This document shows, one piece after another, positions 1 through 12,629 of a stretch of DNA of 12,629 nt. Positions within the stretch are counted from its first letter, which is position 1. The number at the start of each line of letters is the position of its first letter. The notes under the pieces are model-generated. The model was not told the DNA's origin, did no database searches, and saw only the letters and a program-made list of their open reading frames with translations. The stretch is from Fidelibacterota bacterium (GTDB lineage: Bacteria > Fidelibacterota > UBA2242), in the NCBI GenBank assembly GCA_049975265.1, contig JBNGDF010000045.1, positions 3,045 to 15,673 of the forward strand, read 5' to 3'. Both the position numbers and the translations under genes were made by a program.

Positions 1-971
1 AGATTGTGCAGAAACTCATCGGTATCCCAGCCGTTGAAGGGATCCCCCTGATTGATATCCAGACTTCCGAACAGTCCGGCGTCGCAGGCGGTCTGCACTT
101 CATGAGCAAAGGTATGTCCCGCCAGAGTGGCATGGTTATTCTCGATATTGATTTTAAAATCCTTATCCAGACCGTAGTGTCTCAGGAAACCGACGACCGT
201 AGCCACGTCATAGTCATACTGATGCTTGGTCGGTTCCATGGGTTTCGGTTCGATCAGAAAGGTGCCTTTGAAACCGGCGGCGCGACCGTAATCCCGGGCT
301 TTGGTCAGAAACATCGCCAGATGATCGATCTCACGCTTCATATTGGTGTTCAACAGGCTGTAATAGCCTTCGCGACCGCCCCAGAAAACGTAATTCTGTC
401 CGCCGAGTTCAATGGTGGCATCGATCGCCGCTTTTACCTGGGCGGCAACCTGGGGAATGACATTGAAATCGGGATTGGTGGCGGCGCCGTTGGTGTACCG
501 CTTATGGGAAAAGACATTCGCGGTGCCCCAGAGCAGTTTCACACCGGATTCCGCCTGTTTGGCTTTCGCCAGTTTTACCAGCTCTTTCAGATTCTTTTCG
601 GATTCCACCACATTTTTGCCTTCCGGTGCCATATCGCGGTCGTGAAAGCAGTAAAACGGGACGCCCAGTTTAGAGATAAACTCAAAAGCTGCATCCAGTT
701 TGTCTTTGGCAGCTTGCAGCGGGTCGCCGGCGGTATTCCAGGGGAAATCTATCGTACCCTCAGTACCGAAGATATCGGCTCCGTTATTACAGAGGGTATG
801 CCAGTAGGCAATGGCAAAGCGGAAATGGTCTTTCATGGTCTTGCCGGCAACGACTTTGTTCTCGTCGTAATACTTGAACGCCAGCGGGTTTTTCGACTCG
901 GGTCCTTCAAAAGGAATCTTGCCGATACCCTTGAAATACTCCTTCTTACCGATCGTTACATTAACAGACAT
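1..971 (-). CDS. xylA: Xylose isomerase, class II (3' end truncated by window edge)
   Basis: Not in the ORF track. Manual translation from ATG 971 gives [61 protein letters not shown]... and later [49 protein letters not shown] and GWDTDEF, all hallmark XylA motifs. SD AAGGAG lies upstream (tcctt at 981-985 on +). Confidence 0.97.
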
Positions 972-1025
972 AACTTAATCTCCTTCCAATTGTTTGTTTC
1001 ATCGTTACAATCTTAACACTCATTT

Positions 1026-2060
1026 TCAAAATTTAAATTTACTGACGGCATCGCAGAACGCCTGAATGTTTTCCGAACTGACCCCCGGCGGCATTCCACC
1101 GCCACAGGAGGGTATGATGCGCGTCTTATCGGTCAGCGCTTCCAGCATCTCCGCCGTAGCGCGCTGCACGTCGGCGGAACTGCCTGCCGCCATTACATCC
1201 CGGGGTGGAATATTCCCCATCAGGGTCACCCGATTACCGGTCAGTCGCTTCAGTTCATTCAGGGAAATATCGAAGCCCATATTGAAGAGATTGACACCCA
1301 TTTCGGGTAAAAAGGGCGCCGAGACTTTGCAGCTGGCGTCATTGTGCAAAAATTTTACCGAGACGTCAGCGTCGAAAAGTTCCTTGAAATAGGGTAATCC
1401 GAAGCGCCGAAACTCCGGTTCCCCGATAAACCCGATGATATCATCCAGCAGAAAAATACCGTCAATGGTAGGAAAGGTTGCCCGCTGCAGCTGCAGCCAC
1501 TTTTTCAAATATTCGGTTACTTTGCCCATTAAATCATCAACCGCATTAGGGGCTTCCATCATCGCCATCATGAACTCGGTGGTACCCATCAAAAAGCTGG
1601 CGACATTCAGGGGACCGCGGGCGACGGCAAAGCGGATTTTGTGCCCGGCGGCTTCGATTTTGGAACGGGTCAGTTTCAGACGGTTCAATACCAGCGGCGC
1701 GAGACCGTCGGTTTCGGGATCGGGTACCGCAACCTTTTGAATCTCCTCAACCGACGGAATGACCGGAAACGCATGGGGAAATTCGTTGGACGGAAAGCGG
1801 CAGCGCGCCCCAAATGCCGACGGTTCGGTGCACATCCCATACTCCGACCAGAATCCGGGGAGAAACAGCACATCCGGAAAATCGTTAATGGCTTTAAAAT
1901 TGGCGTTTAACCACAATTCTTCGCTGGTAAAATAATCGAGGATACTGATCCCGTACCAGTTCGGCAGCCAGGGACAGTCAATAATGAATGCCACCGGCAG
2001 CGATTTGAGCGGCTCGCCGCGGATAACTTCTAAAAGTGTCTCCCACTGTTTGTCATTCAT
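1026..2060 (-). CDS. Uroporphyrinogen decarboxylase (URO-D)/MtaA-CmuA methyltransferase superfamily protein, not a true HemE
   Basis: Start reassigned from 2237 to ATG 2060 (MNDKQWE..., 344 aa). This start has GGAG 7 nt upstream and overlaps the GH43 stop (ATGAATGA). Family motifs: EPSAFGA, RGPLNVASFLMGTTEFMMAM, IFLLDD, FLHND, LMGNIPP, IIPSCGGGMPPGVSSENIQAF. The HemE signature RQAGRYLPEY is absent. Confidence 0.85.
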   Translation of the reverse strand: MNDKQWETLLEVIRGEPLKSLPVAFIIDCPWLPNWYGISILDYFTSEELWLNANFKAINDFPDVLFLPGFWSEYGMCTEPSAFGARCRFPSNEFPHAFPVIPSVEEIQKVAVPDPETDGLAPLVLNRLKLTRSKIEAAGHKIRFAVARGPLNVASFLMGTTEFMMAMMEAPNAVDDLMGKVTEYLKKWLQLQRATFPTIDGIFLLDDIIGFIGEPEFRRFGLPYFKELFDADVSVKFLHNDASCKVSAPFLPEMGVNLFNMGFDISLNELKRLTGNRVTLMGNIPPRDVMAAGSSADVQRATAEMLEALTDKTRIIPSCGGGMPPGVSSENIQAFCDAVSKFKF

Positions 2061-3804
2061 CTGAAGACTCCAAATTTTCTCGCGGTGACCTGTACACCTC
2101 ATCATCACCCCGATATTCATACCAGTCGAACCAGGCGGATTGATCGGTTTCCGCCCCCAGTGATGTGGCATAGAGTGCGAACATACTTCCCACAAAGCCG
2201 CCGGCAACCCTTGTGGATAAAAACCGCCCGTCCACATTATCCGTTAAGAGCTGCCATTCACCCGGTGTAACGGCGTAGTAAAACGAATAGTCGGCACCAT
2301 CGGCAGCGATGCGCAACCGCAGAATTTGCCCGGCATTTTTCCCGTCGATCTTTTCCGATGCCAGCAATGTCATCGCCGGCAGACCCTCATTATCGTCATT
2401 CGACTTAAAGAGCTGGACAACCGGCACTTCGTCCTGCACCGATTTGCACAAAAAGTAGTAGTGGGTCTCATTCTGAAACGCCAGCAAACCGGCTTTTTCA
2501 TTCTCCCTTTGCGGCTGAAAATCCAGCGCCGCGGCGGCAACGGCTTTCAGATGCTGCTGGCGGCGTCCCAGAAAGGCGGGATTGCTCTTACCGGAGCAGG
2601 TTTCCGGCAGCAAACGCACTTTGACAAAACCGGGTCTGTCCGCCAGATCGTACCATTTCTGATGGGGCGTCCGTAAGAAGGTCCAGTGCGGGTCGAGCCG
2701 GGTGGAATCGAAATCATCCCGGAGAGTGAAATTACCGCTGTAAGGAACCTTTGCCTTTTTCGTCTTTTCGGGCAATGGCAGCGGATATCTGTACTGCACC
2801 TCCTCATAATCGGGATTGATGACAGGCCAACCATCGATCCACTTCACCGGTGCCAGAAAGGTTTCCCGACCGGTGTTGAAAAATCCTTCATATTCGGGCA
2901 GATAGGGACGGCACCCCAGAAACACCGCCCACCAGTCGCCGGTCGGCGTCATCACCAGATCGGCATGACCGGTACAGGTAATCGGATTGGGTCGGTTAGG
3001 GTCTAAATGACGTTGCGTCAGAATCGGATTTTTTTCATAAGGGGTATACGGTCCGGTGACATTCGCACTCCGAAAGACGACCTCAGAATGCTGCCAGGAG
3101 GTACCCCCTTCCGCACAAATCAGGTAGTAATAGCCATCTTTCCTGAAAATGTGAGGACCTTCGATCCAGATCGGCTGTTTGGAAATATCGGTGCCGCCAT
3201 TGACTAATATCATGTTGTCACCGGTCACTCTCAACCGCGCTTTGTCGAAAGAGAACAGCCGGATTGTGCGGTGTCCGTCATAAAGCGGCTGATTATCCGG
3301 CGCAATACTGTTGTAGACGAAATACGCCTGTCCGTCTTCATCGAAAAACAGTGACGGATCAATTCCGTTCACCTCCGGTTGCCAGACCGGATCGGACCAG
3401 GGACCGGCGGGGTCTTCGGAGGTCACTACAAAATTACCGCCGCCATCCACCAACGTACAGGTGACATAAAACACCCCGTCATGCCAGGCAATCGCCGGGG
3501 CAAATAGCCCTCTGGAGAGCCCCAATCCCTCCAGGTTCAGCTGCTCAGGGCGATCCATTACATGACCGAGCAGTTCCCAGTTCACCAGATCCCGGCTGTG
3601 AAAGACCGGAATGCCGGGGTAATAGCTAAAAGTGGAGTTGACCAGATAAAAATCATCACCGACCCGGCAGATACTCGGGTCCGGGTAAAATCCAGCCAGA
3701 ATCGGATTGGTAAAATATTGATCGGTTGCTGATTTCATCTTTTTCTCACTGCATGCAGACAGGAACAGGATTGCAATCAACATCATGGACATCATTCTGT
3801 TCAT
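2053..3804 (-). CDS. GH43 beta-xylosidase/alpha-L-arabinofuranosidase with C-terminal beta-sandwich domain; predicted lipoprotein
   Basis: NPILAGFYPDPSICRVGDDFYLVNSTFSYYPG, GIDPSLFFDEDG, WIEGPHIFRKDGYYYLICAEGGT and TGHADLV supply the GH43 Asp/Asp/Glu catalytic set. The C-terminal domain carries RDDFDS...GGFVG. Lipobox LSA-C follows a hydrophobic N-terminus. GGAG lies upstream of the ATG. Confidence 0.93.
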   Translation of the reverse strand: MNRMMSMMLIAILFLSACSEKKMKSATDQYFTNPILAGFYPDPSICRVGDDFYLVNSTFSYYPGIPVFHSRDLVNWELLGHVMDRPEQLNLEGLGLSRGLFAPAIAWHDGVFYVTCTLVDGGGNFVVTSEDPAGPWSDPVWQPEVNGIDPSLFFDEDGQAYFVYNSIAPDNQPLYDGHRTIRLFSFDKARLRVTGDNMILVNGGTDISKQPIWIEGPHIFRKDGYYYLICAEGGTSWQHSEVVFRSANVTGPYTPYEKNPILTQRHLDPNRPNPITCTGHADLVMTPTGDWWAVFLGCRPYLPEYEGFFNTGRETFLAPVKWIDGWPVINPDYEEVQYRYPLPLPEKTKKAKVPYSGNFTLRDDFDSTRLDPHWTFLRTPHQKWYDLADRPGFVKVRLLPETCSGKSNPAFLGRRQQHLKAVAAAALDFQPQRENEKAGLLAFQNETHYYFLCKSVQDEVPVVQLFKSNDDNEGLPAMTLLASEKIDGKNAGQILRLRIAADGADYSFYYAVTPGEWQLLTDNVDGRFLSTRVAGGFVGSMFALYATSLGAETDQSAWFDWYEYRGDDEVYRSPRENLESSDE

Positions 3805-3855: not shown

Positions 3856-6819
3856 CTATTCCGGGTGGTTAACGACGCTTTCCGGCGGACCCAGATAGCT
3901 CGGTTTCAATCCGCCCCTGTCAATGATAATTTTCTGAAAGACAATTCCGGAGTCCACCAGCCAGATTTTCAAAACATGCTGACCCGCCCCGGCGACATGG
4001 TGGGTTGTCTGGACCTTCATCACTTTGTCCGTTACTGCCGTATTCCACCACTGCGGATACTTCCAGTCGGGCACATCGCACCCAGCATGCATGTTGACTA
4101 ATTGTGGCTCTTCATCATCAACGGAAATTCCGTAGACCAAGCCAGCGGTCTTTTTGAAATTCAGGGTAGGATTCAGATACAGCGTGATTTCGACATCTCC
4201 CCCTTCGAAAAGGGTAAAGTCGTATTCAAGTCCGGGGCTGTCATTCCCGATTTCCCAAGTTTCGATATTTACCGGACGGGCAATCACGGCGGAGTGGGTG
4301 CGCCCGAGATTGGGGATAATTTCCCAATGGATATCAGCATTGGAGACCGCCCGACTGTAATTGGCGGCATTGATGGATACGACGCCGTTGTTCTCCACAA
4401 ATCCCTTGGCAGCAAGGTTTTTAAAATTGTTGATCACCAGCCGGACCGGAATCTTTTGACCGGCACCTTCGACAAAAACAAGCCCCTCTGCTGTCTCTTG
4501 CGGTACTGCTTCCCAATCGATGCTCACCTCTATTCGATCTTCGAATGTCACCGTTCCGGATGTGGCGGAAACATTGATCCACTCTTTTTGCGGTTTGATG
4601 AGATATTCTACCGGTTTCCGGCTTTTATTAAAAATTTCAAGATAGTGTTTCTGGCGATTGATCGGGTCAAATTCCGGCAGAACGGCTTCAGCGGTATCGT
4701 TGGGAAACGCCGCACGCGAGCCTTCCACGGCAACGCCGATTGCCGGTTTCCGTCTGGGTTTCAGGCGGTATACCTTCGGCATGATATTCTTTTCCGGCTG
4801 GTCCCAGGATGTATAGCCGATATGCGTCTGTGCCATCATGCGATTCCATTTGCCACCGGCTAATTTTGTATGATAATCATCGGTCAGGGCGGCATCTTTC
4901 CGGAACAGTTCCGCCACCTTTTCGGCATATTTGTTCGTGGAAGCCCTGCCCTGCTGCTTGTAAAGACGGTTTTTACCGGCGGCGACATACATCTCGTTCA
5001 GGTTGGCACAGATTTCCACCGGAAAGAGAACCAGCTGGTAAAAGGCATCTTTATATTCAGCGCCGATCAATTCATAAATACTCTTCGACTCGGCGACCAG
5101 TTTGTTATAATCGGCGACAACGATTTCGACTTCGTTGTAATCGGTCAGGCTGTAAGTAAAGGGTGTCAACATTTCCGGAGTCCGGCGGGCATTATACTTC
5201 GTGTAGAGGGCAAGGATTTCGCCGATTTTCCCGGCGTATTCAGTCCCGAACTGCTGCGCCGCCCATTGGATATAATAACCGGGCAGGTCGGCGGGTTCGA
5301 TGGCTTCCGGATTCCAGGCGAAATCGAGGAAAAAGCTGATGGGCAACTCCATGGGTTTCAGATCGCCGACATTTACCAGCCACAGCTCCTTCGCGCCATA
5401 GCGGTAAGCAAGATTCATCTGTTCCCAGACCTTTTCGATCTGGGTCACATTCATCCAGCGGTAACTGACCGGACCGCCGACGAAATCGAAGTGATAGTAA
5501 ATCCCGAAACCGCCCTTGCGGGAACGCTCTTCCGGCTTGGGCAGCACCCGGATATTTCCCCAATTATCATCGCATAACAGCAGCATTACATCGTCGGGAA
5601 CGCGCATTCCTTTATCGTAATAATCCTGGACCTCTTTATACAGTGCCCAGACCTGGGGAGTATTTTCGGCAGGCTGACCGGTGACATCTGCGATAATGCG
5701 GCGCTGATCCCGGACGATCTTTTCCAGCAAATCTATCGCCGTTCCCTCCGTCATGGCTTCGTCGCCGTCGCCGCGCATCCCAATGGTAACGATGATTTCG
5801 TAATCTCCCATCCGTTCGATGCCTTCCTGCCAGAATCGGCGCAGAATATCGGCATTTTTTTCGTAATTCCAGGGACCGGTGCCGTAGCGTTCCCACTCCA
5901 CATGGGCGCGCATCATGGGCTCGTGGTGGGATGTCCCGATCACAATCCCGTATTCATCGGCTAACGGGGCATTCAGGGAATCGTCATCATAAAAGGCTTT
6001 GCCCCACATCGCCGGCCATAAAAAATTGCCTTTACAGCGCAGAATTAATTCGAAAACCTTTTCATAGAACAGATGGTTGAAACCGCCGAAGTTTTCCCGC
6101 ACCCAGGAGCCGAGTGCCGGTTCTTCATCGTTCAGAAAGATTCCGCGGTACCTGACCTTCGGTTCGCCGGAAAAGTACCGTCCGGGACGAATATAGACCG
6201 CCTCTTTCGGCATGACGGGCACATCCGCCCAGTAATACCAGGGGCTGACACCGATCCTCTCCGCAAGATCAAACATGCCGAACATCGTTCCGCGCTTGTT
6301 ACTGCCGATAATCACCAGAGCGTGGTCAATCCCCAGTAGTGGTTTTTCGACGGTTTCAATAAAAAATGCATCCCACTTGCCCTCGATCAGAGTTGCGGAT
6401 ATTTTGCCGTTTTCCACCAGATCATCTATATATTGGTTCTTTCCAATAGTCCCGATCAGGACTATTTCGCCGGAGGAGGGAATCTGATCCAGCAGCAGCT
6501 CCGGTTCGGCGCCGGTCACTTTCCGGATATCCGTCTGCAGGATTTCGGCAACTTTCAGCACACCGGGGAAATCATGGGCACTCAAGACAAGGGGTACCGT
6601 TTGACCGGCTCCCGCAAGTGTCAGGGCACCGGTGCATTTTTCAAAGGTAACATAGGATGATTCCGCCCCGGAAATAACAGATTCTCCGGACGCCGCCAGC
6701 GACAGATTGGCGATCACCAGGATCGTCATCAACCATTTTCCAATACCAATGATACGCCGGAAAATCGGGCTTTTTGATAAAAAAGCGGCTGTTCTGTACC
6801 GGGACACAGTTGAGTTCAT
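3856..6819 (-). CDS. GH115 xylan alpha-1,2-(4-O-methyl)glucuronidase, secreted or periplasmic
   Basis: GH115 motifs IGVSPWYYWADVP, YRGIFLNDE, KGNFLWPAMWG, GTSHHEPMMRA, GMRGDGDE, WALYKEVQDYY, DDNWGNIR, YYHFD, NVGDLKPME and C-terminal SYLGPPES. The N-terminal hydrophobic stretch (WLMTILVIANLSLA) resembles a signal peptide. The exact start is uncertain. Confidence 0.93.
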   Translation of the reverse strand: MNSTVSRYRTAAFLSKSPIFRRIIGIGKWLMTILVIANLSLAASGESVISGAESSYVTFEKCTGALTLAGAGQTVPLVLSAHDFPGVLKVAEILQTDIRKVTGAEPELLLDQIPSSGEIVLIGTIGKNQYIDDLVENGKISATLIEGKWDAFFIETVEKPLLGIDHALVIIGSNKRGTMFGMFDLAERIGVSPWYYWADVPVMPKEAVYIRPGRYFSGEPKVRYRGIFLNDEEPALGSWVRENFGGFNHLFYEKVFELILRCKGNFLWPAMWGKAFYDDDSLNAPLADEYGIVIGTSHHEPMMRAHVEWERYGTGPWNYEKNADILRRFWQEGIERMGDYEIIVTIGMRGDGDEAMTEGTAIDLLEKIVRDQRRIIADVTGQPAENTPQVWALYKEVQDYYDKGMRVPDDVMLLLCDDNWGNIRVLPKPEERSRKGGFGIYYHFDFVGGPVSYRWMNVTQIEKVWEQMNLAYRYGAKELWLVNVGDLKPMELPISFFLDFAWNPEAIEPADLPGYYIQWAAQQFGTEYAGKIGEILALYTKYNARRTPEMLTPFTYSLTDYNEVEIVVADYNKLVAESKSIYELIGAEYKDAFYQLVLFPVEICANLNEMYVAAGKNRLYKQQGRASTNKYAEKVAELFRKDAALTDDYHTKLAGGKWNRMMAQTHIGYTSWDQPEKNIMPKVYRLKPRRKPAIGVAVEGSRAAFPNDTAEAVLPEFDPINRQKHYLEIFNKSRKPVEYLIKPQKEWINVSATSGTVTFEDRIEVSIDWEAVPQETAEGLVFVEGAGQKIPVRLVINNFKNLAAKGFVENNGVVSINAANYSRAVSNADIHWEIIPNLGRTHSAVIARPVNIETWEIGNDSPGLEYDFTLFEGGDVEITLYLNPTLNFKKTAGLVYGISVDDEEPQLVNMHAGCDVPDWKYPQWWNTAVTDKVMKVQTTHHVAGAGQHVLKIWLVDSGIVFQKIIIDRGGLKPSYLGPPESVVNHPE

Positions 6820-6881
6820 GGTTTCGATTTCATCTCTTGTGTTGCATTCAGTAAGACTGTGTGATAATTAATTTGAACATA

Positions 6882-6897
6882 ATTGAACCGTTTCAAT
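6882..6897. promoter_or_regulatory. LacI-type operator O1 (ATTGAACCGTTTCAAT)
   Basis: 16-bp palindrome with central CG and 7 of 8 pairs matching. It overlaps the -10 and predicted start site of the GH115 promoter. Near-identical copies occur at 7147 and 8435. Confidence 0.85.
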
Positions 6898-6924
6898 ATT
6901 AACAATAATCTGGCTACTTGTCAA
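6896..6924 (-). promoter_or_regulatory. Sigma70-type promoter of the GH115-GH43-UROD-xylA operon
   Basis: Minus strand reads TTGACA (6924-6919), a 17-nt spacer, then TAATAT (6901-6896). Confidence 0.75.
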
Positions 6925-7146
6925 ATGGAAATCACAATTGTTTCCATTAAAAATATTTATTGTGCATTTTCTCATGATTTGCAGACCACCAAAAAGATCA
7001 TTCCCGATATAAACATGATCATCGGTGTCCACTATTTTCAAGATAAATAAAACGCTGGTTTGAAAAATATTTTAGTCCGGGGGGATTCAATCTGTATTTT
7101 TTTTATTGTTTTTTTCGCCCTTTGACAATATTTTTACTATTGAAGA

Positions 7147-7162
7147 ATTGAACCGTTTTAAT
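7147..7162. promoter_or_regulatory. LacI-type operator O2 (ATTGAACCGTTTTAAT), autoregulatory
   Basis: Differs from O1 at one base. Lies 33 nt upstream of the lacI ATG and just downstream of a TACTAT -10-like hexamer (7135-7140). Confidence 0.8.
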
Positions 7163-7195
7163 CAATTGATAACCGCAAGGGGAAAAGATTAATCC

Positions 7196-8227
7196 ATGAA
7201 AAAAATTACGATTGAAGATGTCGCCAAACGGGCAGGCGTCTCAAAAGGAACGGTTTCGGCAGTGATCAACGCGAAAAATACCGTCAAGCCTGCCACACGG
7301 GACAACATCCTGAAGATCATGAAAGAGATGAATTTTCGCCCCAAAGCCATGGCGCGCAAACTCAAAAACGGTGATCAGGAAAACGCGATCGGGATTATCA
7401 TTAAGGATTTGAATTATCCCTTCTACACCGCCATCGCCACCGGTGTCAGGGAGTACGCCGATAAAAAAGGTTATTCGGTCATCGTGACCAGTTCCGAAGA
7501 TTGTCATGAGCGTGAAAAAAAATTCACCCACCTGTTCTCCGCTATGAATATTAAAGGTTCGATCATCGCCCCTGTACTGGAAGGCACCTCTGAAATCGAA
7601 CATCTGTTTAAATTAAGAATGATTAACTACCCTTTCGTCCTGCTGGAGGATGTCAAGGGGATTCAGGCAAATGTTGTTACCATTGATAACCTGACAGCCA
7701 TCAAGGACGCCGTAAAATACCTGATCGACAACGGTCACACGAAAATTGTCCATTTCGCCGGACCGCCCCATTCGTCGCACACCCAGGAGCGAATCGCCGG
7801 TTTCCGGCATGCATTCAGTGAAAGCCCGTTGGTATTTCACAATGATCTGATTGTTCCCATGGGCTCACACTATGAACCGGTGTTGAAAAAAACTCTCGAT
7901 TACTTTAAAAATCTCGCACCGGATGATTACCCCACTGCGATTGTCTGTTACAATGACCAACAAGCCCTTGCTGTCATGACCGCCTTAAACCGATTGAAGA
8001 TTCTGGTCCCTGACCAAATTTCCATTATCGGCAATGACGATATTCATTACGCCAGCGTCTATCCGATTCCGTTGACCACTATTAAAGCGCCGCAACATGA
8101 AATCGGACGCAAAGCGGCGGAGATCCTGATCCGCAACATCGAATCCAATGTGCAGATTCCCATCGAAAGAGTCGTCTTGGAAACCGAATTGGTCATTCGA
8201 AAATCATCCAGGGTTCTAACCAGCTGA
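7196..8227 (+). CDS. LacI/GalR-family transcriptional regulator
   Basis: N-terminal HTH TIEDVAKRAGVSKGTVSAVIN, hinge RPKAMARKL, and effector-domain motifs IDNGHTKIVH, ERIAGF, PTAIVCYNDQQA, VPDQISIIGNDD, PLTTI, LVIRKSS. Purine-rich SD (AAGGGG) upstream. Confidence 0.96.
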   Translation: MKKITIEDVAKRAGVSKGTVSAVINAKNTVKPATRDNILKIMKEMNFRPKAMARKLKNGDQENAIGIIIKDLNYPFYTAIATGVREYADKKGYSVIVTSSEDCHEREKKFTHLFSAMNIKGSIIAPVLEGTSEIEHLFKLRMINYPFVLLEDVKGIQANVVTIDNLTAIKDAVKYLIDNGHTKIVHFAGPPHSSHTQERIAGFRHAFSESPLVFHNDLIVPMGSHYEPVLKKTLDYFKNLAPDDYPTAIVCYNDQQALAVMTALNRLKILVPDQISIIGNDDIHYASVYPIPLTTIKAPQHEIGRKAAEILIRNIESNVQIPIERVVLETELVIRKSSRVLTS

Positions 8228-8427: not shown

Positions 8428-8456
8428 TTGACATATTAAAACGGTTCAATTAATAT
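8428..8456 (+). promoter_or_regulatory. Sigma70-type promoter of the TBDR operon
   Basis: TTGACA (8428-8433), a 17-nt spacer, then TAATAT (8451-8456). An A-rich tract lies upstream. Confidence 0.78.
8435..8450. promoter_or_regulatory. LacI-type operator O3 (ATTAAAACGGTTCAAT)
   Basis: Exact reverse complement of O2. It fills the -35/-10 spacer of the TBDR promoter. Confidence 0.87.
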
Positions 8457-8636: not shown

Positions 8637-11600
8637 ATGAAATACTTCATCAGTCATTCTGGCAAACGAAAAATTTTACCCAAAATTCGAGAAATCCGTC
8701 AGATTCGGCTGAAAGGTATCGCCGGTAGCCTCTTAATCGCTCTCTTTTTGGCTCAATCCCTGTCAGCTGCCGGCACCATCAAGGGCAGGGTGTACGATAA
8801 AACGACCAATAAGGGGCTTGCTGCGGCAAATATTGTCATTGAGGGAACCAGCTTCGGTGCCGCCGCCGATCTGGACGGCATGTACGTCATTACCAACGCC
8901 CCCGCGGGAAAGCAGACAATCGTGGTCTCCTATATCGGCTATGTCACCGAAGAAGTAGAGATTGAGATACCGGAATACGGGACTCTGAAAAGGGATTTCG
9001 GAATGCAGCCCGATGTTGTCAAAGGCAAAGAGGTGATTGTACTGGCACAGGGGCTGGGTCAGATTCAGGCAATCAATCAACAGCTGGCATCGGATAAGAT
9101 CAGCAATGTGGTTTCCGAAGCGAAAATACAGGAGTTGCCCGATTTCAACGCCGCTCAGGCGCTGGCGCGTCTGCCGGGTGTCTCGACATTGGAGAGTTCC
9201 GGTGAAGCCAATAAGGTGGTCATCCGGGGACTGGCGCCGCAATACAATACTATCTCGGTAGAGGGAGTTAAACTGACCTCCACCGGGAGTTCGCAAATCG
9301 GTGTATCAGCACTAGGAAACACGTCCGGCAGTATTTCCAATGACCGCAGTGTTGATCTTAGCATGATTTCACCTTATATGATCAAATCCATGTCGGTCTT
9401 CAAATCCCTGACACCCGATATGAATGCCAATTCCATCGGCGGTTCCGTGAATATGGAACTACGGGAAGCGCCTTCCCAACTGCATTACGATTTGCTATGG
9501 CAATCGGGTTATACCGCCAAAACCGGTAACTACGGAAATTACCGCGCCGTGGCTTCCGCCAGTCAGCGTTTTTTCGTGGACAAACTCGGCGCCTATCTTC
9601 TGGTAAATGCCGAAAAATACGATCGTGACGCCGACAATATGGACGCCTTTTATAACACCAGCAGCAGTACTATTGACACGACCACCGGCTATCGTCCGGT
9701 GCGGGTCAGAGACGTCACACTGAGACGACATATTGAGACCCGGAAACGTTACGGCGGCAATCTGATCCTGGACTACAAACTGCCTTCCGGCTCGATCAAA
9801 GCGGTGAACATGTTCACCCGCCTGGCTTCCGATTACAGCGATAATAATACGGTATTGCACTATAGTGATGGGGTCCTGTACTTTAATTATCGGGAAGGGG
9901 AAAATATCACCGATCTATCTGTTAATTCTATCGCTTTAAAGTACGATTTCGGACGAATGCAGATGGATATGAATATCTCGCGCACTGCATCTGAAAATAA
10001 TCTGCCCGAATCCCCATACCTTCAATTTCAAACCGGTGATATTCTCCCTTCTAACGTTCCAGACAACACAATACCTGAAGATTTAGTTCGATTGATTGAT
10101 TTCCCGGGTGCCGACAAGGTGTATCTGACTAATATCAATATATTCAGTTCACTTTACAAAGAATCCAAAAATACAATTTCATCCAATTTTAAATTCCCCT
10201 TTGCAGTAAGTACATTCCTGACCGGTTACCTGAAAATAGGTGGACAATATTATCATCAGAAAAACAGCAACGATCAGAAAACCCCTTACGCCAGAATAAA
10301 TAAAACCGGTGATTTCCAAACGGCAATGGTAGAGGATTTGGAAAAAGTTTTTGGGATTCCGGTAGACTCTGCAACCGCCAAATTTACAGGTGCCCGGTTT
10401 TTGGGTGATGAAAACCTGATGGGGTCTTTCCTTGATAATGAATTCGGGGAAATCTACTTTGCCTGCGACCCGACTATCCCGGCGGAGATGGCGGAATATC
10501 TGGCAAATAGTCCGCAATGGCGGGGTAAAGCCACCGGCGGTCCGGAGCAGACCGGCGGCTGGTACAGCGGTATGTTCCAGACCCTGGCAAATTCCTATAA
10601 ATACATGGAAGAGTATTACGCCACCTACGTAATGTCGGAAATTAAATACAGAAATATCATGATCGTCGGCGGCGCCCGCTACGAAAAAACGGCGTCAAAA
10701 TATACCGCCTATAATATGTTCGACATGCGCAATCCCGATGCTCAAAACTGCGATACGGTTGTCGCCAAACCAAAAAGTGAATTTGTACTCCCAATGGTTC
10801 AGGCAAAGTATTCACCCTTCGGCTGGTTCGATATCCGCTATGCCTACACACAGACCCTTGCCAGACCGGATTACCATCAGATGTCACCGAAAATCACCTA
10901 CAATAATCCACGCAATGTTGTCCGGGCTGGTAATCCGGACCTGCAACCGGCGCTGGCGTGCAACCACGATCTTTATCTGACTTTTCACGGTAATAAGCTG
11001 GGACTCTTCTCTATCGGCGGTTTCTATAAAACCGTGGAAGATTTTACCTATTCCTACGCCTATAAACTGCACGAAACCAGTGATGACGAAATGGTCAGAA
11101 CGATCGACGATTTTAATATCATGGGAATTAAACCGGATAAAGATAAGGGACCCACATTATATACCTATATAAACAGCCCTTACAAAGCGTACGTAAAAGG
11201 GATCGAATTCGATTTGCAGACACGGTTTTGGTATCTGCCCTTCCCGCTGGATGGTGTTATCCTGGGAGCCAATTATACCATGATTGAGTCAAGAACTAGA
11301 TACCCGTATAATGATGAAGTAACCGATTATACGACGCGTCCGCCGGTAACCAAAACCCAATTTGCCACCCGCCCCGGACGGCTGATCTATCAGCCGAACG
11401 ATGTTGTCAATGCATATGTTGGTTATGAGTACAAGGGATTTTCAGCCCGGTTGTCGTTCCTCTTTCAGGGTAATTCCGTGAGCCGGATCGGGACCTTCCC
11501 GGAACAGGATGGCTACACCAAAGATTATTTCCGAATCGATGCTTCGCTCCGGCAGAAACTGCCCTGGCATGGGACCGAAATTTATCTGGACGCCAGCAAC

Positions 11601-11705
11601 CTGAACAATGCCCTTAATGAATCCGCCCAGATTACAATTGACGGGTTCACCAATGTCAAACACTACGGTGCCACCGCCAATCTCGGTGTGAGATTTAGAA
11701 TGTAA
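8637..11705 (+). CDS. TonB-dependent receptor with N-terminal carboxypeptidase-regulatory-like domain; probable xylo-oligosaccharide importer
   Basis: Signal peptide ending SLSA. N-terminal domain GTIKGRVYD...AANIVIEGTSFGAAADLDGMY...SYIGY. TonB-box-like EVIVLAQ. Plug motifs LPDFNAAQALARLPGVS, VVIRGL, KSLTPDMNANSIGGSVNM. Barrel motifs TQTLARPDY, GNPDLQP, KGIEF and terminal strand NLGVRFRM. Substrate is inferred from context only. Confidence 0.92.
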   Translation: MKYFISHSGKRKILPKIREIRQIRLKGIAGSLLIALFLAQSLSAAGTIKGRVYDKTTNKGLAAANIVIEGTSFGAAADLDGMYVITNAPAGKQTIVVSYIGYVTEEVEIEIPEYGTLKRDFGMQPDVVKGKEVIVLAQGLGQIQAINQQLASDKISNVVSEAKIQELPDFNAAQALARLPGVSTLESSGEANKVVIRGLAPQYNTISVEGVKLTSTGSSQIGVSALGNTSGSISNDRSVDLSMISPYMIKSMSVFKSLTPDMNANSIGGSVNMELREAPSQLHYDLLWQSGYTAKTGNYGNYRAVASASQRFFVDKLGAYLLVNAEKYDRDADNMDAFYNTSSSTIDTTTGYRPVRVRDVTLRRHIETRKRYGGNLILDYKLPSGSIKAVNMFTRLASDYSDNNTVLHYSDGVLYFNYREGENITDLSVNSIALKYDFGRMQMDMNISRTASENNLPESPYLQFQTGDILPSNVPDNTIPEDLVRLIDFPGADKVYLTNINIFSSLYKESKNTISSNFKFPFAVSTFLTGYLKIGGQYYHQKNSNDQKTPYARINKTGDFQTAMVEDLEKVFGIPVDSATAKFTGARFLGDENLMGSFLDNEFGEIYFACDPTIPAEMAEYLANSPQWRGKATGGPEQTGGWYSGMFQTLANSYKYMEEYYATYVMSEIKYRNIMIVGGARYEKTASKYTAYNMFDMRNPDAQNCDTVVAKPKSEFVLPMVQAKYSPFGWFDIRYAYTQTLARPDYHQMSPKITYNNPRNVVRAGNPDLQPALACNHDLYLTFHGNKLGLFSIGGFYKTVEDFTYSYAYKLHETSDDEMVRTIDDFNIMGIKPDKDKGPTLYTYINSPYKAYVKGIEFDLQTRFWYLPFPLDGVILGANYTMIESRTRYPYNDEVTDYTTRPPVTKTQFATRPGRLIYQPNDVVNAYVGYEYKGFSARLSFLFQGNSVSRIGTFPEQDGYTKDYFRIDASLRQKLPWHGTEIYLDASNLNNALNESAQITIDGFTNVKHYGATANLGVRFRM

Positions 11706-11762
11706 AGGGAAATCAGTAATGATAGTGAAAAACAATGTAAATAAAATATGGAGGTTCAACTT

Positions 11763-12629
11763 ATGAAACGAATCGTTACAGGAATGATTTGTGCCTGTTT
11801 TCTCAGCCTCTCCTTGTCTGCTCAGGTCAAGGATACGGTTGAAGTAAACGGCATGTATAGCGACGGCGGTGAAGGTGAACTGAACACCGCCATTCAGACA
11901 GTCATTGACGCCGGGAATCTCTCCAATAAGGTTTTCAAACTGAAATCCTACGACTGGTACGTCATTACCGGAACGATCGAAGTACCCGCAGGTGAAACGC
12001 TTGAGCTGGTTGGAGAGCCGATCGGTACAACCCAGGCGACTGCCCCACCGCAGATTCTCTGGACCGCCAGTGGCAGCGTTACGAAAAATTTCATGATTGC
12101 TGTCTATGGCGATCTGATCATGAAAAACATCTGGATCCGGTATGCCGATGCCGCCGGTGTTCAGACCGGAACGCCGATCGTGTTTGATGGCGATACTCTG
12201 GGTGTCACCGGAGATACCGGTGAATACGGTACCTTCGAAAATTGTATTTTTGAATGGATGCCCTGCCCCACCGTAACTGCTTCCGGTGCAATCTGCGTCC
12301 GCTGCGAACATTTTAACGGAACATTCAGGAACTGCTATTTCCGCAACTGCGTAGACTCGCACTTTATGTATTATGGCAGAGCGGTCTCCTTTCCTTACGA
12401 TGTTCCGGGATATCACACGGACTATATCTCCTTCGAAAACTGCACCTTTGCCAACATGGGCTATGTCTACATGCAGGAGGGAACCAACTGGGGCGAGAAC
12501 GTTCACTTCAACCACTGTACTTTTTACAATGTTGTGATGTTTTCGCTGGAATCCGGCTGGTGGTGGAAAATGAACGTCACCAATTCCCTCTTTGTAAATG
12601 CGTTTATGATGGGATTTGTCCCGGCACAG
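11763..12629 (+). CDS. Secreted protein with predicted right-handed parallel beta-helix (pectin-lyase-like) repeats; 3' end truncated
   Basis: Not in the ORF track. GGAGG at 11750-11754, ATG at 11763, and 289 codons open to the edge. Translation starts MKRIVTGMICACFLSLSLSA-QVKDTVEV...GELNTAIQ...FKLKSYDWYVITGTI. Repeats are FENCIF, FRNCYFRNC, FENCTFAN, FNHCTFYN, VTNSLFVN. Confidence 0.85.
   Translation, partial: MKRIVTGMICACFLSLSLSAQVKDTVEVNGMYSDGGEGELNTAIQTVIDAGNLSNKVFKLKSYDWYVITGTIEVPAGETLELVGEPIGTTQATAPPQILWTASGSVTKNFMIAVYGDLIMKNIWIRYADAAGVQTGTPIVFDGDTLGVTGDTGEYGTFENCIFEWMPCPTVTASGAICVRCEHFNGTFRNCYFRNCVDSHFMYYGRAVSFPYDVPGYHTDYISFENCTFANMGYVYMQEGTNWGENVHFNHCTFYNVVMFSLESGWWWKMNVTNSLFVNAFMMGFVPAQ

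Follow-up and report, generated by a model that had tools for sequence, protein, structure and literature searches.

The closest described systems are corrinoid-dependent demethylases whose first methyltransferase (MT1) belongs to the UroD (URO-D) superfamily. OdmB and VdmB of Acetobacterium dehalogenans, together with MtvB, MtoB and CdmB, are placed in this superfamily, some of them without zinc, and have a corrinoid protein, a second methyltransferase (MT2) and an activase as partners (PMC13222342, in its accessible part). Their substrates are methoxylated aromatics or haloalkanes, and the UroD-family O-demethylases named in the accessible part of that paper all act on aryl, none on alkyl, ethers (PMC13222342). 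The mlp clusters carry several Mlps, the type 1 cluster combining Mlp2 and Mlp3 with a corrinoid protein and RACE, and sugars are never mentioned in the accessible part of the preprint (PMC10418091). In the split methionine synthase MtgBCD of Ruegeria pomeroyi, according to the accessible text, an MT1 specific for its donor supplies a free-standing cobalamin protein, which is used for methionine synthesis as well; the donor is glycine betaine and not a methyl sugar acid (PMC12478193). In marine aerobes, a sugar methyl ether that stands in the way of catabolism is taken off by cytochrome P450 carbohydrate demethylases, but these are described, in the accessible parts of the reports, as requiring O2, yielding formaldehyde and acting on 6-O-methyl-galactose, and the protein is unrelated to URO-D (PMC6292453; PMC12316285). 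The anaerobic demethylation of this sugar was called unelucidated in 2025 (PMC12316285). Corrinoid and methyltransferase genes do occur in a glycan-degrading anaerobe, Bacteroides thetaiotaomicron (BT_0340/0342/0343, Mta), where the accessible text lists them as methylamine methyltransferase proteins (PMC8941943). Finally, the use of aldouronates has been described with no demethylation step, leading from release straight to glucuronate catabolism, and 'demethyl' has 0 matches in the accessible part of that description (PMC4194401).

The locus considered here was found in a window of 12,629 nucleotides, the whole stretch of DNA that was analysed, on contig C45 of a Fidelibacterota genome. The main acidic side chain in the xylans of hardwood and many grasses is 4-O-methylglucuronic acid, and the GH115 family releases (4-O-methyl)glucuronic acid from xylan. 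The first gene of the operon encodes a GH115 alpha-glucuronidase (3856..6819, minus strand; PF15979, PF17829). It is followed by a GH43 glycosidase with a GH43_C2 domain (2053..3804, minus; PF04616, PF17851), a gene for a 344-residue protein of URO-D fold (P0001; 1026..2060, minus) and the xylose isomerase gene xylA (1..971, minus; PRK05474 above cut-off), which extends beyond the window; xylB and galM, outside the window on the same contig, complete the order GH115 - GH43 - URO-D gene - xylA - xylB - galM. The URO-D reading frame has no internal stop, its ATG overlaps the end of the GH43 gene, stop codon included, by 8 nt (ATGAATGA), and a GGAG precedes this ATG. A longer frame of 403 aa, starting at 2237, was rejected because all close homologs begin at the ATG at 2060. 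Two long antisense frames, at 6-1016 (plus) over xylA and 11442-12629 (minus) over the last gene, are taken as shadows of the coding strand. No partner (corrinoid) gene is present in the GH115/GH43/URO-D/xylA operon, and no tetrapyrrole gene is found among the 7 window proteins scanned. An earlier, sequence-only reading had placed the gene between GH43 and xylA, overlapping the GH43 stop, in a window free of tetrapyrrole genes, and all of this holds. It had also denied the protein a signal peptide, which agrees, on hydropathy as the sole basis, with an N-terminus that has no hydrophobic stretch (best 11-residue mean, 1.6). The single URO-D gene of this operon differs from the described composition of a type 1 mlp cluster.

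A LacI-family regulator (7196..8227, plus; PF00356, PF13377) is encoded divergently to the GH115 operon, and beyond it lies a TonB-dependent receptor (8637..11705, plus; TIGR01782 above cut-off), probably an importer of xylo-oligosaccharides belonging to the same regulon. The palindrome AATTGAACCGTTTYAAT occurs in three copies within 1.6 kb (6881-6898, 7146-7163 and 8434-8451), a pattern derived from these three window sites themselves. Consensus matches to TTGACA-17-TAATAT are present at 6924-6896 (minus) for the GH115 operon and at 8428-8456 (plus) for the TonB-receptor operon, each overlapped by one copy: the LacI-type palindrome covers the -10 box of the former (feature 6881..6924, minus) and lies in the spacer of the latter, and the remaining copy (7146..7163) stands in front of lacI. 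The palindrome recurs in 13 of 80 related loci; three places of the same genome that are discussed below, C8, C30 and the surroundings of the C12 gene, show no copy. The suggestion that the URO-D gene is downstream of an operator-controlled GH115 promoter is thus upheld as regards the upstream GH115 gene and the palindrome on the promoter match; the promoter itself is a consensus match, in a scan that is at chance level overall (9 found versus 8.8 expected).

The Pfam URO-D model (PF01208) spans residues 7-341 with 125.3 bits (E 3.8e-36) against a gathering cut-off of 23.9, which confirms the superfamily. The score with the hemE model TIGR01464 is 51.9 bits, below the cut-off of 302.95, and the MtaA/CmuA models likewise stay below theirs (TIGR01463, 65.9 versus 235; NF004889, 60.8 versus 244; NF040654, 45.1 versus 400). 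At the places of RQAGR and of the C-terminal His of HemE, which we take to be catalytic, the protein reads IIDCPW and CGGG. The methylcobamide:CoM methyltransferases MtaA and MtbA share with it the fold and the His of the zinc motif. Nevertheless, in a profile of 55 relatives, the HIC...C motif of MtaA (4ay7), whose His-x-Cys...Cys residues are presumably the zinc ligands, aligns to H239-N240-D241...G321: the His-Cys-Cys site reads His-Asp-Gly, both zinc cysteines being replaced. Eleven residues are invariant in 32 of 32 close orthologs (D28, W71, E73, E79, R148, D206, D207, H239, N240, D241 and G321), and C319 is kept in 31 of the 32 and lost in distant kin. The predicted structure is a confident model (pLDDT 95), and the fold search made with it does not separate MtaA (Z 33.1, rmsd 2.7 Å, 328 aligned, 20% identity) from HemE (Z 29.5-31.9). 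CdmB is not among the fold matches listed, which excludes nothing, and it matches only the C-terminal half of the ortholog family profile (E 1.4e-18). Relatives are plentiful: 7770 of 8000 scored candidates match at E 0.001, the best 120 of these being all 68-90% identical, and an Atlas search returned only URO-D clusters. In the host genome, which is 95.3% complete, no gene exceeds the hemE cut-off, and ALAD (PF00490), the sole upstream tetrapyrrole step searched, has no match. Because the HemE and MtaA scores fall below cut-off, the zinc motif is replaced and the fold matches both about equally, the protein represents a separate conserved branch, whose site is acidic, carries a His and is not of the zinc type that activates thiols. 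The statements that it is not HemE and lacks RQAGR are therefore borne out, and 'MtaA-like' was too strong a label, since the MtaA zinc ligands are not kept.

The ortholog accompanies the enzymes that release methylglucuronate. Among 201 genomes of the host phylum, it is present in 15, GH115 in 15, and both in 14, that is, the ortholog is found in 14 of 15 genomes with GH115 versus 1 of 186 without; in the lone genome that has GH115 only, the GH115 gene is cut by a contig end. GH67 occurs in 12 of these genomes, 11 of them with the ortholog. The ortholog and GH115 are less than 10 kb apart in 10 of the 15 phylum genomes, and one more ortholog lies directly behind GH67. Restriction to the 22 xylA carriers, a control for plain xylose use, leaves 13 of 14 with GH115 versus 1 of 8 without. 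A second set consists of 181 genomes of Ignavibacteria, the class of G203, a centre picked for having the ortholog. Here the ortholog is present in 17 genomes, GH115 in 18 and both in 15 (15/18 with GH115 versus 2/163 without), and among 27 xylA carriers the figures are 14/17 versus 2/10, one of these two orthologs being broken. At G328:C1:2709001-2710021 the ortholog is split into two overlapping pieces and contains a stop; this genome has xylA and no GH115. Fisher tests give small p-values, which overstate the association because related genomes are not independent; a few genomes belong to two sets or more. In both lineages, as had been anticipated, orthologs follow GH115/GH67, and the link persists among xylA carriers.

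At the level of single loci, 80 relatives at 60-90% identity were compared, the gene labels coming from profiles built from these loci themselves and named by Pfam; the clusters labelled 'CE4like' and 'BNR' are mixed (GH10, secretion tails) and were left out. GH115, GH67 or CE15 is present in 29 of the 80, and in 23 of the 46 having at least 8 kb upstream. The first 50 loci belong to 49 genomes, 36 with GH115 or GH67 and 13 with neither, and 11 of these 13 belong to the 60-64% identity group (genome completeness not given), made up mostly of a Bacteroidales branch in which DUF6807 and GFO oxidoreductases occur. These two genes directly follow the ortholog in L038, L043, L045, L048, L051-L054, L129, L144 and L172, in genomes often lacking GH115 or GH67. 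PF07470 (GH88/GH105-like) recurs beside the ortholog in 17/80 loci (among them L059, L060, L105) and beside GH67/GH10 in the host (G000:C14:1-1185); its substrate in xylan loci is possibly hexenuronic acid. More distant relatives, from 80 metagenome loci, have GH67 adjacent in 10, mostly near-identical kin, and uxaC or uxuA in a few; ExuT-like carriers are also among their neighbours. In 26 of these 80 (L124-L181), a Nramp-like transporter of 585 aa precedes the relative; a GFO oxidoreductase and a further URO-D protein are often present as well, and corrinoid genes are absent from the vicinity.

Part of the close loci also hold the components of a cobalamin-dependent methyl transfer. A same-strand gene for a corrinoid protein, a homocysteine methyltransferase, an activation domain or a pterin-binding protein lies within 4 kb in 31 of the 80; 21 have both corrinoid protein and homocysteine methyltransferase, 16 of them with the activation domain too, which speaks for the predicted co-occurrence with corrinoid genes. 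The other 49 have no corrinoid-module gene within 4 kb, many of the loci being short. The cassette amounts to a methionine synthase in pieces, with the ortholog standing in for an absent folate-binding donor domain. Its MT2 is most often a homocysteine methyltransferase, unlike that of the OdmB-type O-demethylase systems. MtgBCD offers a precedent for a split methionine synthase supplied by a donor module, with an MT1 that we take to be of the MttB type, a family other than that of the URO-D protein. Cassette records come from Ignavibacteriota, Bacteroidota, Fibrobacterota, Verrucomicrobiota, Kiritimatiellota and Spirochaetota. Variants associate the ortholog with a pterin MT2 and MTHFR subunits (L088, L094), with an adjoining RACo (L046), or with PurU inserted between GH43 and the ortholog (L107/L070), and these suggest folate as the methyl sink. 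A plasmid search for relatives gave 3 records, and on a Gemmatirosa kalamazoonensis plasmid a 39% relative is found in the order SDR - uxuA - URO-D - corrinoid - RACo - an ORF with no Pfam hit - homocysteine methyltransferase. The 21 cassette genomes were tested for other donor enzymes, namely MtaB and a URO-D paralog with H-x-C: the paralog is present in 8, MtaB (in the locus) in 2 and neither in 11, the assemblies being incomplete. In these 11 genomes, therefore, the ortholog is the cassette's only donor-side candidate.

The paralogs just mentioned form a second branch of URO-D proteins, in which the H-x-C...C motif is intact and a corrinoid gene lies alongside (G000:C8:38533-40250, i.e. L011; L020, L030, L036, L037, L063, L074, L082). 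In L037 the paralog takes the place that MtaB holds in L042, and on C8 of the host a pectin methylesterase is found at 28 kb from the paralog, the region being one of pectin and hexuronate genes. Members of this branch may transfer methyl from methanol to corrinoid with a fold new to such methyltransferases, or serve as a sink that releases methanol. A third URO-D protein of the host (G000:C4:4351-6324, L013) is paired with another homocysteine S-methyltransferase.

In the host itself, corrinoid protein, MT2 and activase are all encoded, but the system is not clustered as it is in 21/80 ortholog loci, its parts being scattered over four contigs. A stand-alone corrinoid protein with a DLHDIG motif (C8:38533-39162) lies beside the H-x-C paralog, a stand-alone homocysteine methyltransferase 43% identical to the cassette enzymes is at C12:20258-21133, MetH is on C39, and a RACo activase is at C30:1528-3078. 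The C8 corrinoid protein is not a specific partner, as its query matches 121 of 201 phylum genomes and close orthologs occur in genomes with no URO-D ortholog. Further xylan genes are found on C14 (GH67, GH10 and the PF07470 protein) and C39 (CE15).

The fate of glucuronate in this organism bears on the need for demethylation. A tblastn search of the host genome gave neither UxuA nor an enolase-type mannonate dehydratase, and neither a pterin MT2 nor a free-standing activation domain; no UxaA-type dehydratase was found in it either, and its enolase-family matches resemble, by eye, dipeptide epimerase and enolase. A cluster at C8:77221-86886 (L096) contains uxaC, a TRAP transporter, a mannonate oxidoreductase, gnd, kduD, a LarA-type epimerase (188 bits, versus 500 for the putative hexonate epimerase) and a PfkB kinase, and no uxuA. 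An epimerase shunt for hexuronates is known from Thermotoga work, and the host appears from its gene content to pass mannonate by way of an epimerase to 6-phosphogluconate dehydrogenase, a possible glucuronate-to-pentose-phosphate shunt. By carbon numbering, the 4-O-methyl of glucuronate becomes the 3-O-methyl of mannonate and gluconate. In principle, that methyl could leave as methanol through UxuA, but Gnd must oxidise the oxygen that bears it and would be blocked. The methyl would therefore need prior removal. A complementary distribution of UxuA and the ortholog was considered and rejected, UxuA being present in 5 of the 15 ortholog genomes of the phylum and not seen in 10.

The URO-D protein is probably a corrinoid MT1 that demethylates 4-O-methylglucuronate or its first metabolite, a reading in which we infer the substrate and the B12 dependence from gene context. 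GH115, and GH67 on C14, would supply 4-O-methylglucuronate, whose carboxylate R148 may bind. The invariant E73, E79, D206, D207, H239 and D241 would activate the ether oxygen, with or without a metal, and the methyl would pass to the Co(I) of a cob(I)amide protein, either the C8 corrinoid protein or the B12 domain of MetH. From methyl-cobamide it would go to homocysteine through the C12 methyltransferase, or to folate; RACo, or an activation domain, would re-reduce oxidised cobalt, and the freed glucuronate would enter hexuronate catabolism. Several findings weigh against this reading: the 49 of 80 close loci with no corrinoid-module gene nearby, the single corrinoid gene among 80 distant loci, the 13 of 49 ortholog genomes with neither GH115 nor GH67, the UxuA of 5 ortholog genomes in the phylum, the unspecific C8 corrinoid protein, the restriction of the named UroD-family O-demethylases to aryl ethers, and a methyl flux from growth on xylan that far exceeds what methionine synthesis would demand. 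The oxygen-independent removal of the methyl ether, as first proposed, is thus favoured by the tracking of GH115/GH67 and by the corrinoid cassettes; substrate and B12 dependence are still read from neighbouring genes, and the partner genes lie outside the operon.

The alternative that survives best, though an unlikely one, is that a B12-independent enzyme expels methanol from 4-O-methylglucuronate or its keto form by beta-elimination or hydrolysis, the nearby corrinoid genes merely salvaging the methanol. The chemistry is favourable, since the methoxy group is in beta position relative to the carboxylate and, once the sugar is isomerised, to a keto group as well. PF07470, of the unsaturated-uronyl hydrolase family (GH88/GH105), is within 4 kb in 17/80 loci, and only 1 of the 80 distant loci has a corrinoid gene near. 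Methanol entry genes are also at hand in places: MtaB in 3/80 loci, the H-x-C paralog beside 7 orthologs, and the host paralog next to its corrinoid gene. Enterobacter asburiae JDR-1 reportedly produces methanol from fragments of methylglucuronoxylan, an observation that would be compatible with elimination in other bacteria. Against this, the H-x-C paralog is present in only 13 of 40 ortholog genomes, and in the 11 of 21 cassette genomes with neither MtaB nor the paralog the cassette would have no entry for methanol. Moreover, we know of no lyase of the URO-D fold.

Second in order, and unlikely as well, is a corrinoid MT1 acting on another methyl donor of xylan or gum degradation, be it another O-methyl sugar or methanol. 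The mostly Bacteroidales branch with DUF6807 and GFO oxidoreductases, often lacking GH115 and GH67, could be so explained, as could the Planctomycete-like loci that pair a relative with the Nramp-like transporter and a second URO-D protein. The window protein, however, belongs to a branch in which most loci have GH115/GH67 or the cassette, and the tracking of GH115 persists among xylA carriers. An enzyme for methanol should follow pectin genes; instead, it is the other, H-x-C paralog that lies near the pectin methylesterase locus.

It is quite improbable that the protein is an aryl O-demethylase MT1 for ferulate or lignin fragments freed from xylan. PF00756 esterases do occur in 12/80 loci, often directly downstream, and OdmB, VdmB, MtvB and MtoB are aryl O-demethylases of the UroD superfamily according to the accessible text of PMC13222342, but the host genome has no good match to the PF00756 esterase cluster (best 25 bits), and the distant relatives have GH67, uxaC, uxuA and ExuT-like carriers as neighbours. 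Still less credence can be given to an acceptor-side MT2 like MtaA, methylating a thiol to dispose of methyl groups. MtaA is the best structural match (Z 33.1), His239 is invariant and Cys319 is almost so in close orthologs, but in the alignment Asp241 and Gly321 stand where MtaA has its pair of zinc cysteines, Cys319 sits two residues away and is not conserved in distant kin, and the cassettes already contain an acceptor enzyme (homocysteine or pterin MT2). A uroporphyrinogen decarboxylase present in the operon by chance, as Pfam name, database labels and fold would have it, can practically be dismissed in view of the score (51.9 bits versus 303), the replaced RQAGR and catalytic His regions, the lack of ALAD in a 95%-complete genome and the conserved xylan context.

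The gene is thus real, conserved and mislabelled, and its product, taken as a demethylating MT1, is the best current candidate for oxygen-independent demethylation of 4-O-methylglucuronate. The balance tips, if slightly, towards a whole family of such sugar O-demethylases: cobalamin methyltransferases cleaving an alkyl methyl ether on a sugar acid, unlike the aryl or haloalkane donors of OdmB, VdmB, MtvB, MtoB and CdmB, with similar partners here known from gene neighbourhoods. Anaerobes of several phyla would in this way ferment the main acidic side chain of xylan, passing the methyl groups of the plant wall directly on to methionine and folate, and the enzyme would be a swappable donor module for any corrinoid protein. 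No description of such an enzyme was found in a literature search from which subscription journals were mostly excluded, so an earlier mention is possible. What the window contributes is the orphan form, two profiles at genome level, controlled for xylA, and a search of cassette genomes for other donor enzymes. With a named enzyme family that has cultured carriers, the demethylation gap becomes accessible to a standard Co(I) spectral assay. If the proposal is true, many 'uroporphyrinogen decarboxylase' labels would be corrected, B12-dependent O-demethylases would extend from aromatic to sugar ethers, and the breakdown of fibre would be tied to the supply of B12.
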